Assembly (NCBI GenBank): GCA_963675245.1
Contig: OY775910.1
Span: 288,001 to 352,000 of the forward strand
DNA length: 64,000 nt
Reading direction: 5' to 3'
From: Acholeplasmataceae bacterium
GTDB lineage: Bacteria; Bacillota_I; Bacilli_A; Acholeplasmatales; Acholeplasmataceae
The notes beneath the pieces were generated by a model. That model saw only the letters and a list, made by a program, of their open reading frames with translations. It was not told where the DNA came from and ran no database searches. The first letter of the stretch is position 1; each line of letters begins with the position of its first letter. Positions 21,825-24,724 of this stretch are shown here, piece by piece. The translations under genes and the position numbers were made by a program.

Positions 21825-21948
21825 CTTATTTAATTTCCACTAGTCCTTCTAATACGAGAAGCCATTTGATACGTTTCTTTTTATTCATTTATCAACCTCT
21901 GTGAACAATTTAGAAAACATCAATGTCACTCATATTAAAAACACCAAT

Positions 21949-22128
21949 CTATGATTCCTCATCGTCTTCTGGTTTATGTTGTTTTAGGTATCCAGCAAGA
22001 AACATGACCGCAAATATTGTAAGCATCCCTAAATATCCTAGATGAGCACGAGATAATATTATTGTCATTATAATTAATCCAAAAAACCCAATGAGTGCTA
22101 TGATAAAATTAAATACTTTAAAATTCAT
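21949..22128 (-). CDS. Small two-TM membrane protein (cassette E), paralog of 22820-23005
   Basis: MNFKVFNF..IFAVMFLAGYLKQHKPEDDEES; RBS GGGGG, promoter TGTTATAAT. Confidence 0.75.
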   Translation of the reverse strand: MNFKVFNFIIALIGFFGLIIMTIILSRAHLGYLGMLTIFAVMFLAGYLKQHKPEDDEES

Positions 22129-22176
22129 ATTCCCCCATCCGACAATCATTAGTTAATGTATATTATAACATGGAAT

Positions 22177-22254
22177 TAAAAAAGCCCCACTAAGGGCTTT
22201 GTTTATAAATTGAAGATATATAAGGGAAATGAGTACTAATCAATAGTTTAGGAG
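22177..22254 (-). repeat. Decayed tRNA-Arg 3'-half plus terminator repeat (copy 4)
   Basis: 22211-22254 aligns to 24648-24692 at about 24/45 with one gap; 14 of 20 mismatches are G>A or C>T. Adjacent hairpin AAAGCCC..GGGCTTT. Confidence 0.7.
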
Positions 22255-22269
22255 AACGTTCTATTCATA

Positions 22270-22650
22270 TCATGTTAATGTTGACTGATATGTTTCACCT
22301 GTTATGATAAAGAATACATTATCATCTTTGAATGCAATAATGAGATTTTTATATACCGCAAAAATTTGCGATAAATTTTCATCATCCATTCTTGATTCAT
22401 AATCTTGAAGACTAAAATATGCTTCAGCATCTTCGTTATTATCAAATTCTAAAATGTACGCTGCAAATTGTCCATTTTCATCTATTACACGATATTCATG
22501 AACGATATTATCAAATTCGCTTGTTGAAGTTTCAACAGTATAATGATTACTTTCTAAATCTTTAATGACATTATCTACAGAATAGCATCCAGTAAGTAAC
22601 GTCAAAAGTATTATAAATAATAGTAACGACAAAAGTTTTGAAATATTCAT
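22270..22650 (-). CDS. Predicted lipoprotein (cassette D)
   Basis: MNISKLLSLLLFIILLTLLTGC signal peptide with lipobox LTGC, acidic mature part; promoter TGATATAAT. Confidence 0.8.
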   Translation of the reverse strand: MNISKLLSLLLFIILLTLLTGCYSVDNVIKDLESNHYTVETSTSEFDNIVHEYRVIDENGQFAAYILEFDNNEDAEAYFSLQDYESRMDDENLSQIFAVYKNLIIAFKDDNVFFIITGETYQSTLT

Positions 22651-22719
22651 AATGCCCCCAATTAACATGTTTTCTTTTATTATATCACTTTATATCACCA
22701 AGAAATAGATTTTATTATT

Positions 22720-22797
22720 AAAAAATCCCTTAAAAAGGGATTCATTGTTCTAGTGGCACAATGTAAAATATTTGAAACGTGAGTCATGATTTATAGC
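22720..22797 (-). repeat. Decayed tRNA-Arg 3'-half plus terminator repeat (copy 3)
   Basis: Terminator AAAAAATCCCTTAAAAAGGGATT nearly identical to the tRNA terminator, then TTCTAGTGGC (vs TTCTAATGGC) and ATTTGAA at the same offset as the T-loop ATTCGAA. Confidence 0.7.
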
Positions 22798-22819
22798 TAA
22801 TGACATATAAGACATAATA

Positions 22820-23005
22820 CTACTTTTCTTCATCTAATTCATTTTCTGGTTCGCTTTGTTTTAAGTAACCTGCAAGAAACATTACTGCAAAAATAAATAA
22901 CAATGCGATAGATCCTGCATTTATTGTAATTAAATAAATCGTTACACCTATCATCCCCAAAAAACCGACAATTGATAGCCGGACATTAAACTCTCTAAAA
23001 CTCAT
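22820..23005 (-). CDS. Small two-TM membrane protein (cassette C), paralog of 21949-22128
   Basis: MSFREFNV..IFAVMFLAGYLKQSEPENELDEEK; RBS GAGGAGGGG, promoter TGATATAAT. Confidence 0.78.
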   Translation of the reverse strand: MSFREFNVRLSIVGFLGMIGVTIYLITINAGSIALLFIFAVMFLAGYLKQSEPENELDEEK

Positions 23006-23063
23006 ATTACCCCTCCTCATTATAAAATTTTGATTATACTTATTATATCATACCTTTAAAAAA

Positions 23064-23144
23064 CAAAAAATCCCTCAACAAAGGGATTTATTTTTCTAAT
23101 AGCGATGCACGAGGGATTCGAACCCTCGATCGACGGCTTAGAAG
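23064..23144 (-). repeat. tRNA-Arg 3'-half plus terminator repeat (copy 2, attR-like)
   Basis: 23100-23144 matches 24648-24692 at 42/45. Identity stops exactly at the anticodon loop CTTCTAA; same terminator adjacent. Confidence 0.95.
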
Positions 23145-23178
23145 ATCATTTAGTCAGCACGAGGATTTTATAGTCAAT

Positions 23179-23847
23179 TTACAACTTAGACAGTTTTTTA
23201 AGGAATTTTGAAAACTTGCTAGGTTCCACATAGTTTATTTCTGATTTAACAAATCCTTTTAGTTTCTCTAAGTTTTTATGATACGATCTATTTATTTTTG
23301 TCACATTATCCTTATATTGCTTTTTATCAATATCTAATAGATTTTCATCACTAAAAGTATTTTCATATTCTAAAAATGATTCTCTTTTCTTCTTTTTGTC
23401 AAAATTAAACAATTTAATCGTGTCTTCCAAGAGATTTTTTTCTTCATTCATATTAAAATATTCTAATGAATCAATAATTTCATCGATATAGTTTACTAGA
23501 GATACTTCTCCTAAAACTTTGAAACCATATTCATGAATAAATCGTAAAAACTCATAGACTAAATAAACCTTAATAAATATAGTATCATTACTATTGATCA
23601 TTTTTTTAACATATTCCACTTTATCAAAATTTGTATAATATAACACATATTCCCAAATTATGTCTAAAATCTTTTCTTCTGGAATTCCTCGTAACAATTC
23701 ATATGATAGTGGATATGCCTTATAGAAGTTAACAATTTTACTTTTTCTTTCTTCTGCCTTCTTCATCATCTTTTCCATGTTAAATGAGAAAGCTTCACTT
23801 TTACTGATTCTCATTAATTTTTTAGCATGCTTGTTTTTTTTATACAT
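23179..23847 (-). CDS. AT-rich hypothetical protein (cassette B), possible DUF4375/DMP19-like helical domain
   Basis: 222-aa ORF with RBS GAGG and promoter CTACGGTGATATAAT. Family resemblance is by eye only. Confidence 0.75.
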   Translation of the reverse strand: MYKKNKHAKKLMRISKSEAFSFNMEKMMKKAEERKSKIVNFYKAYPLSYELLRGIPEEKILDIIWEYVLYYTNFDKVEYVKKMINSNDTIFIKVYLVYEFLRFIHEYGFKVLGEVSLVNYIDEIIDSLEYFNMNEEKNLLEDTIKLFNFDKKKKRESFLEYENTFSDENLLDIDKKQYKDNVTKINRSYHKNLEKLKGFVKSEINYVEPSKFSKFLKKLSKL

Positions 23848-23919
23848 AAGGATTTTCCTCAGAGTTTTCTTTAATTATATCACCGTAGGGCTCTTTAGAA
23901 AACGCCAAATTAACACTAA

Positions 23920-24000
23920 CAAAAAATCCCTTAACTAAGGGATTCATTTTTCTAATGGCGATGCACGAGGGATTCGAACCCCCGACCGACGGTTTAGAAG
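23920..24000 (-). repeat. tRNA-Arg 3'-half plus terminator repeat (copy 1, attR-like)
   Basis: 23956-24000 matches 24648-24692 at 44/45, ends at the anticodon loop; same terminator adjacent. Confidence 0.97.
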
Positions 24001-24049
24001 ACCTTCTAGTTTTAATAAAATTGTATTTAATTGAGATTTTTAGACTTGT

Positions 24050-24532
24050 TTATTTTTTCCATATACTCAACAAATACTCATAATCCTTTTTATCATATAG
24101 CAGTGTAATATAAGTATCCTCTTTCATTAAGTAATCAGGTTTTTTGATGTTCTCATCTGAATAAATAATTAAGATGTAAATGTCATCATTTTGGTTTCTA
24201 TATTTATTAAGATTAGATGTTTTTATTTGAAGTACTTCGTTGAAATTCATTTTCTTAACAACTCCAAATGGCCATCTAATGATTATGTTATCTCCTTCTA
24301 TATAACCCCATCTTACCCCTTGTTTTAGAAAAATAAAAATATATACCAAAATACTGCAAATGGCTAACAAGCTAAATATTATTAGAATTGTTGGTGTAGC
24401 TGTTGAATTGCTATTTCTTTGAAAATAAGCTAATAAGACAGCGAATATTGGTACAAAAACCAATAATATGCCACAGCCTAAGCCAAACAATAGGTAATTT
24501 CCTATATTTAATTTAAATCTATACTTACTCAT
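24050..24532 (-). CDS. AT-rich two-TM membrane protein (cassette A)
   Basis: Two hydrophobic helices then a soluble domain. Start MSKYRF after GGTGGGG; promoter TTGAAA-16-TATAAT with extended TG. Confidence 0.78.
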   Translation of the reverse strand: MSKYRFKLNIGNYLLFGLGCGILLVFVPIFAVLLAYFQRNSNSTATPTILIIFSLLAICSILVYIFIFLKQGVRWGYIEGDNIIIRWPFGVVKKMNFNEVLQIKTSNLNKYRNQNDDIYILIIYSDENIKKPDYLMKEDTYITLLYDKKDYEYLLSIWKK

Positions 24533-24610
24533 AAATCCCCACCATAGCATTATATCTTATTCTTATTATATCACCGTAGATCTCCCTTTCAAATAAGAAA
24601 TATTAGTCTA

Positions 24611-24643
24611 CAAAAAAATCCCTTAACAAAGGGATTTGTTTTT
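24611..24643 (-). terminator. Intrinsic terminator after tRNA-Arg
   Basis: AAATCCCTT-TGTT-AAGGGATTT followed by further U residues on the minus strand. Confidence 0.85.
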
Positions 24644-24647
24644 CTAA

Positions 24648-24724
24648 TGGCGATGCACGAGGGATTCGAACCCCCGACCGACGGCTTAGAAGGCCGTTGC
24701 TCTATCCAGCTGAGCTAGTGCACC
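24648..24724 (-). tRNA. tRNA-Arg (anticodon TCT)
   Basis: GGTGCACTAGCTCAGCTGGATAGAGCAACGGC-CTTCTAA-GCCGTCGGTCGGGGGTTCGAATCCCTCGTGCATCGCCA; full cloverleaf, 77 nt, encoded CCA. Confidence 0.98.

Follow-up and report, generated by a model that had tools for sequence, protein, structure and literature searches.

The 64-kb window analysed here (the whole stretch of 64,000 nucleotides, positions 288,001 to 352,000 of contig OY775910.1 of the Acholeplasmataceae assembly GCA_963675245.1) contains a single tRNA gene, tRNA-Arg(TCT), and behind it, reading the minus strand toward a cof-like HAD hydrolase gene, an array of short single-gene units. The units were numbered from 1 (adjoining the tRNA) to 5 (nearest cof) and their open reading frames (ORFs) were named c1 to c5. 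The genome under study (G000) is a single contig of 1,626,300 bp with 33.9% GC and 42 tRNA genes; labels from G001 onwards denote genomes of relatives in the family, and L071 is a metagenome contig. ARAGORN and Rfam (65.8 bits) agreed on the intact tRNA-Arg(TCT) gene, which an earlier note on this DNA had placed correctly, and the Rfam scan returned nothing else above threshold. The Arg(TCT) anticodon gene is single-copy among the 42 tRNAs. The array has a GC content of 28.0% compared to 33.9% for the genome. It is flanked by a marR-family gene on the tRNA side and by the cof-like gene on the other; the latter lies on the plus strand, ends at 21799 and is kept beside the slot in relatives.

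Anatomy of the units and their cargo

Each of the five units consists of a terminator, one extended -10 promoter (TGNTATAAT), a G-rich ribosome-binding site (RBS) and one ORF of 59-222 aa. Terminator-like sites numbered 13 in 3.2 kb compared to 0.7 +/- 0.9 in shuffled sequences, and the motif TGNTATAAT was found 12 times in the window, of which five occurrences lie in the array, each unit contributing one on the minus strand. These counts agree with the earlier description of one terminator, promoter, RBS and ORF per unit, and the distances between successive starts (692, 856 and 346) fit the unit lengths of about 690, 860 and 350 given at that time.

All displaced copies of the tRNA-Arg 3' half begin at the base of position 24692, the first base of the anticodon loop, and units 1 and 2 are bounded by direct repeats starting at this loop (an attL/attR pattern). 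The alignment scores of copies 1 and 2 were not matched by any of 2000 shuffles each, and a 19-mer of the repeat occurred three times with none expected. The earlier note had described the repeat as the 3' 45 nt of the tRNA and had counted five copies. The tRNA-derived copies were indeed found, but the repeat is longer, a 93-nt unit of tRNA half, ATCCCTT..AAGGGAT hairpin and T-run present in three copies with 85-89% identity, of which a 38-nt terminator block is present in four copies. Copies 3 and 4 were visible only in a register fixed by the terminator; in free local alignment they were no better than chance (1577/2000 and 392/2000 shuffles reached their scores). Against an anchored null of 20000 random 45-mers (identities 10.3 +/- 2.8, 99.9th percentile 19; with G>A and C>T decay allowed 19.4 +/- 3.3, 99.9th percentile 29), copy 3 had 14/45 identities, only ~1.3 standard deviations over the null mean, and 29/45 with decay allowed, which equals the 99.9th percentile. 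Copy 4 had 19/45 identities (99.9th percentile) and 31/45 with decay allowed (null maximum 32). The proposed fifth copy (~21894-21916) was rejected, its score being reached by 725/2000 shuffles.

Identity to the tRNA half therefore drops with distance from the tRNA, from 44/45 and 42/45 in copies 1 and 2 to 14/45 and 19/45 in copies 3 and 4. Copy 4 is possibly the original 3' end of the tRNA gene, displaced by the first insertion. Together, these data support a series of discrete, co-oriented, self-promoted, one-gene units bounded by tRNA-derived att copies. Coordinates of the features are given in Table 1.

Table 1. The tRNA-Arg(TCT) array and its flanks, in window coordinates and ordered from the marR side to the cof side.
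Feature	Position	Strand	Description
marR-family gene, conserved left flank	24777-25214	minus	served to locate the orthologous slot in relatives
Intact tRNA-Arg(TCT)	24648-24724	minus	ARAGORN, Rfam; anticodon loop CTTCTAA at 24686-24692
Unit 1 backbone	24533-24647	minus	terminator hairpin 24616-24637; -35 TTGAAA 24587-24592
Unit 1 backbone promoter	24565-24573	minus	extended -10 TGATATAAT; RBS GGTGGGG
c1 ORF, 160 aa	24050-24532	minus	two N-terminal transmembrane segments
Displaced tRNA 3' half, copy 1	23956-24000	minus	44/45 identical; CTAGAAGGT just before is an imperfect inverted copy of the loop core
Unit 2 backbone	23848-23955	minus	terminator 23924-23945; extended -10 23874-23882; RBS GAGGAAA
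c2 ORF, 222 aa	23179-23847	minus	cytosolic, weakly DMP19-like
Displaced tRNA 3' half, copy 2	23100-23144	minus	42/45 identical
Unit 3 backbone	23006-23099	minus	terminator 23068-23089; extended -10 23042-23050; RBS GGAGGGG
c3 ORF, 61 aa (66 aa from upstream ATG)	22820-23005	minus	two transmembrane segments
Decayed tRNA 3' half, copy 3	22754-22798	minus	seen only in terminator-fixed register
Unit 4 backbone	22651-22753	minus	terminator 22724-22742 (fourth ATCCCTT..AAGGGAT hairpin copy); extended -10 22679-22687
c4 ORF, 126 aa	22270-22650	minus	lipoprotein, lipobox LLTGC
Decayed tRNA 3' half, copy 4	22211-22255	minus	seen only in terminator-fixed register
Unit 5 backbone	22129-22210	minus	different terminator AAAGCCCTTAGTGGGGCTTT 22181-22200; extended -10 TGTTATAAT 22162-22170
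c5 ORF, 59 aa (66 aa from upstream ATG)	21949-22128	minus	two transmembrane segments
Bidirectional terminator	21798-21815		ends the array and, from the opposite side, the converging gene of the cof-like HAD hydrolase

The terminator of unit 5 resembles the one found directly behind tRNA-Arg in G005, and for this reason its scar may be the original end of the tRNA gene and its ORF a resident. Unit 5 is thus either the oldest cassette or an ancestral resident gene of the slot. In G005, the second-closest relative, contig C25 ends 92 nt behind tRNA-Arg, with a post-tRNA terminator (AAAGCCCAGCGTGGGCTTTTTTT) of the G000 unit-5 type; such an end would be expected if the assembly had broken at a repeat array. 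We also observed a 20-codon ORF (MNKKKRIKWLLVLEGLVEIK, RBS AGAGG) at 21835-21897 on the minus strand, after the unit 5 ORF and before the cof terminator; within this ORF, CTCGT..ATTAGAAGG bears a faint likeness to a tRNA end plus spacer that was not significant.

Four of the five Arg ORFs encode membrane proteins or lipoproteins. The two small proteins c3 and c5 are paralogues (52% identity over 63 aa; 79% nucleotide identity over 56 nt). None of the five ORFs reached a family threshold and none contained a fragment of an integrase, regulator or phage gene. No family was assigned to c1, for which a word-index search returned c1 alone, and c4 matched no family at threshold. The same search with c3 returned the query only, in a setting where it is insensitive (it missed the paralogue c5). 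The cytosolic c2 scored 23 bits (E 1.2e-4) against Pfam PF14300, below the cut-off of 25, and 29 of its 30 matches in the ESM Atlas were to DMP19 clusters (score 0.93). One weak match to c2 was present among 150 family genomes, and no relative was detected by phmmer in 1.84 billion representatives or by word index among 5.8 billion proteins. A single-sequence AlphaFold2 model of c2 was unusable (mean predicted local distance difference test score 42.5).

Integrases and arrays at other tRNA genes

No protein in the 64-kb window matched PF00589 and no resolvase or serine recombinase was found there, in line with the earlier claim that no recombinase is encoded in it. Six PF00589 proteins are encoded in G000, all outside the window: XerD (355.7 bits; cut-off 329.6), encoded 1.18 Mb from the array, an XerC-like protein (309.5 bits; cut-off 335), the integrases of a tRNA-Lys island and a tRNA-Gln island (~34% identical to each other), and a tandem pair in an unrelated island. 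None of eight recombinases reached the cut-off (265) of the integron-integrase model TIGR02249, with scores of 32.6-158 bits; the element integrases (those of the islands, G002 and L071) are short Xer-like enzymes. In the tandem pair, two tyrosine recombinase genes overlap in the same orientation (products of 323 and 318 aa with 49% identity; G000:C1:1131524-1133448); they adjoin a PRiA4_ORF3-like gene and an AAA_21 (AbiEii-like) ATPase gene, with no nearby tRNA.

Integrase-bearing elements with the same crossover point as the Arg units were found in relatives. In the congener G002 the same tRNA-Arg holds a 13-kb island whose displaced copy has its first base at the same position. Products of this island include a 290-aa tyrosine integrase (PF00589, E 9e-32) with 30% identity to the integrase of Acholeplasma plasmavirus L2, and a 586-aa protein whose only matches in the phage database were two Plasmavirus L2 records (E 1e-10). 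Tandem prophages with an integrase 76% identical to that of G002 occupy the tRNA-Arg site in G004, and 21 viral contigs represented prophages of other Bacillota with the same anticodon-loop boundary. Across the family, 19 of 172 genomes had at least two matches to the Arg half, mostly 7-22 kb apart; a 7.4-kb unit in G059 had no integrase match. In one of the 19, G161, two apparent copies 220 nt apart were rejected as they are the tRNA genes Arg(TCT) and Arg(CCT), with no cassette. Three exact tRNA-Arg(TCT) halves were observed in G044 (G044:C1:416141, 429082, 442023), exactly 12,941 bp apart, probably representing two identical 12.9-kb (L2-sized) elements in tandem.

Plasmavirus L2 itself (NC_001447.1) has a 45-nt stretch (5387-5432, minus strand) that can be read as the 3' half of a tRNA with a CCA end; its start matches tRNA-Val(GAC) from the anticodon loop onward (17/17 nt compared to the G000 gene). 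This stretch lies ~330 nt from the 'putative attP' of the record (5029-5053), upstream of XRE-like ORFs and the integrase, a layout as in the G002 island. The tRNA-like half may be the true attP of L2.

A BLAST search against G000 revealed displaced 3' halves at four of the 42 tRNAs: Phe(GAA) with eight, Lys(CTT) with five, Arg(TCT) with two and Gln(TTG) with one. The tRNA-Phe(GAA) array (G000:C1:772658-778480) repeats the design of the Arg array, with a tRNA half, a terminator, a promoter and an RBS ahead of what is mostly a single ORF, at a spacing of 0.37-1.4 kb. Eight of its nine junctions have the arm GAAACGA and one has GTAACGA, with AAAGGA at tRNA-Phe itself, and two junctions consist of the core only (~20-25 nt). 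It comprises ~10 single-gene cassettes encoding lipoproteins, small cytosolic proteins and one WapI-like protein. An additional partial Phe copy was observed at 783203, past the gene of a 1469-aa surface protein. The tRNA-Lys(CTT) array (G000:C1:121853-151810) has displaced halves at 139187, 143816, 146905, 149499 and 151762, bounding units of 2.3-17 kb, with an integrase (128410-129279, minus strand) only in the first (17 kb). Its first four units open with a 79-aa XRE-like ORF and have in common a conserved ~70-nt arm behind the tRNA half. At tRNA-Gln(TTG) (G000:C1:990416-995299) a lone element of 4.8 kb encodes its own integrase (293 aa; 993346-994224) and is a small autonomous representative of the same group of integrases.

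Cargo of the Phe arrays included DUF4259 (80 bits) and DUF4085 (31.7 bits), both above threshold, and the WapI-like match (22.4 bits), which was below the cut-off of 27. Searches of 27 cassette proteins against NCBIfam and PHROGs produced no usable match. DUF4259 and DUF4085 might have an immunity role. Literature searches on DUF4259 (judged by titles) and on DMP19 with 'immunity protein' returned no support for such a role. As a guess, held with low confidence, the cargo may provide surface or exclusion functions against membrane-fusing plasmaviruses or competitors.

An autonomous element of the Phe type is complete on L071, where it spans 3.4 kb from tRNA-Phe to an attR that has GCATGAAACGA, the arm of the cassettes. 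Its start, comprising tRNA half, terminator, promoter and ORF head, is that of the Phe cassettes, and its order is tRNA-Phe, terminator, promoter, ORF, 288-aa integrase (32% identical to that of G002), XRE regulator, two membrane-protein ORFs and attR. An integrase gene is present inside the tRNA-bounded units of G002, G004 and L071 and absent from the Arg units of G000. The last ORF of L071 has upstream of it (~700-790, minus reading) a promoter and a terminator that is a degenerate version of the element's own (AAGCCATCTATAGTAGGTTTTT), and looks as if it were a cassette fused into the element after decay of an att site. Junction-type sites of the Phe system were detected in two of 41 relatives plus ~13 low-GC metagenome contigs, several of which have 3-6 cores at 0.35-1.4 kb spacing, some with only a ~25-nt core between ORFs. 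A scan of viral contigs with the Phe junction returned no loci.

The presence of XerD and an XerC-like protein in G000 raises the question of whether the host's own XerC/XerD could move the cassettes with no phage-type integrase. Precedents for such use of XerC/XerD are the IMEX elements at dif and the pdif modules on Acinetobacter plasmids. The integrases of the islands are also of the Xer-like type, and the arms of the Arg cassettes (GAAGGT, AATGAT) form imperfect palindromes with the loop core (e.g., CTAGAAGGTCTTCTAA). The Phe system, however, has dedicated integrases with a matching arm, and a crude dif search with a generic Xer-arm motif yielded no candidate close to either extreme of GC skew (685 kb and 1490 kb). 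We regard movement by the host enzymes as highly improbable.

Turnover of the slot and origin of the array

The order marR, tRNA-Arg, cof is syntenic genus-wide, with a different slot content in each of the eight genomes with a readable slot. The content ranged from ~0.4 kb in G003, one ORF in G008 and one lipoprotein ORF in G009 to 3 kb in G007, 3.3 kb in G006 and >12 kb in G001 and G002. The nearest species, G006 (MarR 94% identical), has two displaced Arg copies with the same backbone behind both. Over 137 nt, the one behind the first copy is 91% identical to that of G000 unit 1, compared to 87% for the marR flank, and none of the G000 Arg ORFs is present in the G006 slot. Cassette content thus varies among relatives; invariance of content and order was the outcome that the earlier note had named as speaking against capture. 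The tRNA half, terminator and promoter can be aligned across G000 units 1, 2 and 4, G006 unit 2 and the G002 attR. A 101-aa Phe cassette is shared by the two species but ranks fifth in G000 and first in G006 (91.5% over 532 nt, 94% amino-acid identity), with the remaining Phe cassettes unshared between them. In addition to this, the ORF behind the displaced Arg copy in G002 has 54% identity to an ORF in the Phe-type array L065, which points to cargo drawn from a common pool.

In unitigs of three sequencing runs on a single sample, which is probably the source, the G000 array was rebuilt with even depth and breaks only at exact repeats, and the depth of the cassette-1 unitig was about that of the flanks. 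The read evidence covered four runs of one study, all in the form of contigs, and is not independent given this probable origin; as far as the unitigs can show, the repeats are not an assembly artefact.

Backbones of this kind (85-93% identity over 93-137 nt) are long and similar enough for homologous exchange. The array could have arisen once and have been altered since by RecA-dependent exchange or transformation via its 90-140-nt backbones, with no site-specific enzyme today. This would accord with the lack of a cognate integrase in G000 and with conservation that extends past the tRNA half into the promoter, with divergence starting just behind the -10 box. Such exchange leaves unexplained, however, how unrelated ORFs were first placed between identical heads and why all borders lie at the integrase crossover base, and the core-only junctions of the Phe type (~25 nt) are too short for efficient homologous exchange. 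We consider this origin distinctly improbable.

A further origin, raised in the earlier note as well, is that the units are deletion scars, remnants of full-size prophages or islands that lost the integrase and most genes and never moved as cassettes. Such remnants do occur at the slot: homologues of the opening ORF of the G002 L2-like prophage (39% identity) stand at the head of both the 2-kb unit nearest the tRNA in G006 and the 3-kb interval in G007, neither of which holds an integrase. Units 2-4 of the G000 tRNA-Lys array (2.6-4.6 kb) likewise open with the 79-aa XRE-like gene without an integrase, and a deletion route to cis-mobilisable elements (CIMEs) is described in the passages of PMC5704250 that deal with them. 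The G000 Arg units do not fit this pattern, as they hold no integrase, regulator or phage gene fragment and all have the same neat head and one ORF. Their formation by this route needs five independent deletions ending behind one gene yet keeping the distal arm, and the Arg backbone is unlike the attL end of the L2-like prophage. Retention of the distal 7-nt arm in the Phe system, at 8 of 9 junctions as well as in the ~13 low-GC metagenome contigs, suggests selection on the site. An origin of the G000 units as deletion scars therefore appears unlikely.

The identity gradient, the borders at the integrase crossover, the conserved head with replaced ORFs, the retention of the Phe arm and the change of rank of the Phe cassette are best fitted by serial insertion. 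The foreign base composition of the array (28.0% GC), the recurrence of the design at other tRNAs of the genome and the autonomous L071 element also speak for it. We consider it probable that the array consists of non-autonomous mini-elements accreted by small Xer-like tyrosine integrases from other elements. In this mechanism, a cassette circle would carry, behind a short arm and the core from the anticodon loop, the tRNA 3' half together with the head (terminator, extended -10 promoter and RBS) and a single ORF. A Xer-like tyrosine integrase encoded elsewhere would recombine the core of the cassette with the anticodon loop of the chromosomal tRNA gene, which would be restored by the half brought in with the cassette, and the old 3' half and everything behind it would be shifted one step toward cof. 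Repeated insertion would place the youngest unit beside the tRNA and the oldest, with decayed att scars, beside cof, a direction of stacking that we infer from the gradient. The integrase might come from autonomous relatives at the same site (plasmavirus-L2-like prophages, 3-kb elements), acting in trans or by cis-mobilisation after accretion beside the cassettes. The backbone terminator would stop the transcript of the tRNA or of the preceding cassette and the promoter would drive the cargo, so that each gene would be expressed alone. Since no cognate integrase is present, the G000 array is probably static at present.

Several observations weigh against accretion by borrowed integrases. No integrase with a likely specificity for the Arg cassettes was found, and the arm of the G002 prophage (AATGGA) differs from the Arg cassette arms. 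Two of the four proposed scars were detected in the anchored test and not by free alignment, and unit 5 may be a resident gene and not a cassette. The Arg backbone occurs in only three of the 172 family genomes (G000, G006, G002) and a metagenome scan with the Arg end-plus-spacer pattern returned no loci; for these reasons the evidence for movement of Arg cassettes comes from two species. Integrase-less decayed prophage remnants sit in the slot in G006 and G007, which means that deletion can make integrase-less units there. Finally, no excision product, circle, empty-site variant or joint was detected in the unitigs, but contigs drop rare variants, which makes this absence weak evidence in either direction.

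A wider reading is that Acholeplasmataceae possess a distinct, integron-like capture system assembled from other components, with 0.3-1.4-kb single-gene cassettes that each have a tRNA-derived att core and a terminator-promoter head and that are excisable, shuffled, and exchanged between tRNAs (Arg, Phe) and species by the Xer-like integrases of plasmavirus-like prophages or 3-kb helpers. We put this forward tentatively, as possible but somewhat doubtful. If it is true, the ~25-nt core-only Phe junctions would represent insertion into existing att scars, comparable to attC x attC recombination. If the cassettes are mobilised as units, an integron-like store of single accessory genes would have evolved a second time by an independent route, docking at an essential tRNA gene and using borrowed integrases, and this would also account for the renewal of the membrane and lipoprotein repertoire in wall-less bacteria whose genomes measure 1.6 Mb. 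Should the units be no more than scars, the locus would still offer a well-resolved case of a prophage attachment site becoming a hypervariable gene slot. The cassette heads are compact natural terminator-promoter-RBS modules, and the short att cores (~25-45 nt) make recombination easy to test in vitro.

Comparison with known systems

The earlier note did not recognise the array as a described system. That was overstated, as related arrays are described for CIMEs, tycheposons and rAID-1 in the parts of the respective sources considered here, and PMC6563490 notes, in the passage concerned, the formation of arrays through re-use of one att site as general knowledge. Of the known kinds, CIME accretion arrays and tycheposon islands come nearest in mode of action, and rAID-1 is similar in layout. 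Literature searches judged by titles found no description of such arrays in Acholeplasmataceae, which is not proof of absence.

Prophages and islands at tRNA genes (Islander-type, L2-like) share with the Arg units the anticodon-loop crossover, the restoration of the gene by the element and the displaced 3' fragment at the far end. They are 7-22 kb in the family, most with an integrase, whereas the G000 units are 10-40x smaller and have none.

CIMEs keep attL and attR, lack integration and transfer genes, are stacked at the 3' end of tRNA genes and can be mobilised by a functional neighbour, according to the relevant passages of PMC5704250. Units 1 and 2 resemble the CIMEs of the ICESt1/ICESt3 family of Streptococcus in being att-bounded in the 3' part of a tRNA gene, and the Arg units are equally without integration or transfer genes. 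CIMEs, however, are presented in those passages as decayed integrative conjugative elements or integrative mobilisable elements of several kb, whereas the Arg units measure 0.3-0.86 kb with one ORF and a shared head. Remnants of a parent element that would point to such a decay origin are absent from the G000 units but present in G006 and G007.

The tycheposons of Prochlorococcus integrate repeatedly at a few tRNAs including Arg(TCT), with new elements pushing older ones inward and partial tRNAs dispersed over the whole island, as set out in the relevant passages of 10.1101/2020.12.28.424599. Integration at a tRNA with partial tRNAs between stacked elements is common to both systems, as is the setting of a flexible gene pool in a small genome in the account given there. 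In that account tycheposons carry their own recombinase and replication genes with cargo to 10 kb or more, whereas the Arg units have neither module. The tycheposon passages of 10.1101/2020.12.28.424599 mention degraded remnants but no promoter-bearing single-gene arrays.

The rAID-1 arrays of orphan immunity genes in Bacteroidales are likened to integrons by their authors in the pertinent passages of 10.1101/471110. As described there, they share with the Arg array co-directional small genes, repeated intergenic sequence and a GC content skewed from that of the host. They differ in having, in the same passages, a XerD-like recombinase gene at the 5' end and no tRNA anchor, whereas no recombinase gene adjoins the Arg array. 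Immunity is demonstrated for rAID-1 in that source; here there are hints only (the sub-threshold WapI-like match, DUF4259 and DUF4085 in Phe arrays).

Integrons consist of IntI, attI, the promoter Pc and attC hairpins located 3' of promoterless ORFs, and clusters of attC sites lacking integron-integrases (CALINs) have no integrase. The Arg array resembles integrons, sedentary chromosomal integrons among them, in its one-ended stack of small, mostly single-gene cassettes with one site each and in an order and content that vary among close relatives, and resembles CALINs in the absence of an integrase. It has no IntI, attI, Pc or attC, its site is a double-stranded tRNA half, and each cassette has its own promoter and terminator; by membership, it is not an integron. 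Of the functional analogy with a trans-acting integrase drawn in the earlier note, the one-gene self-promoted cassettes and the presence in the genus of integrases that cross over at the same base hold, whereas neither IntI/attC nor an integrase serving the Arg cassettes was found. What appears to be new compared to all of these systems is the miniaturisation, with sub-kb single-gene units that have their own promoter and terminator and a shared head, present at several tRNAs of one small genome.

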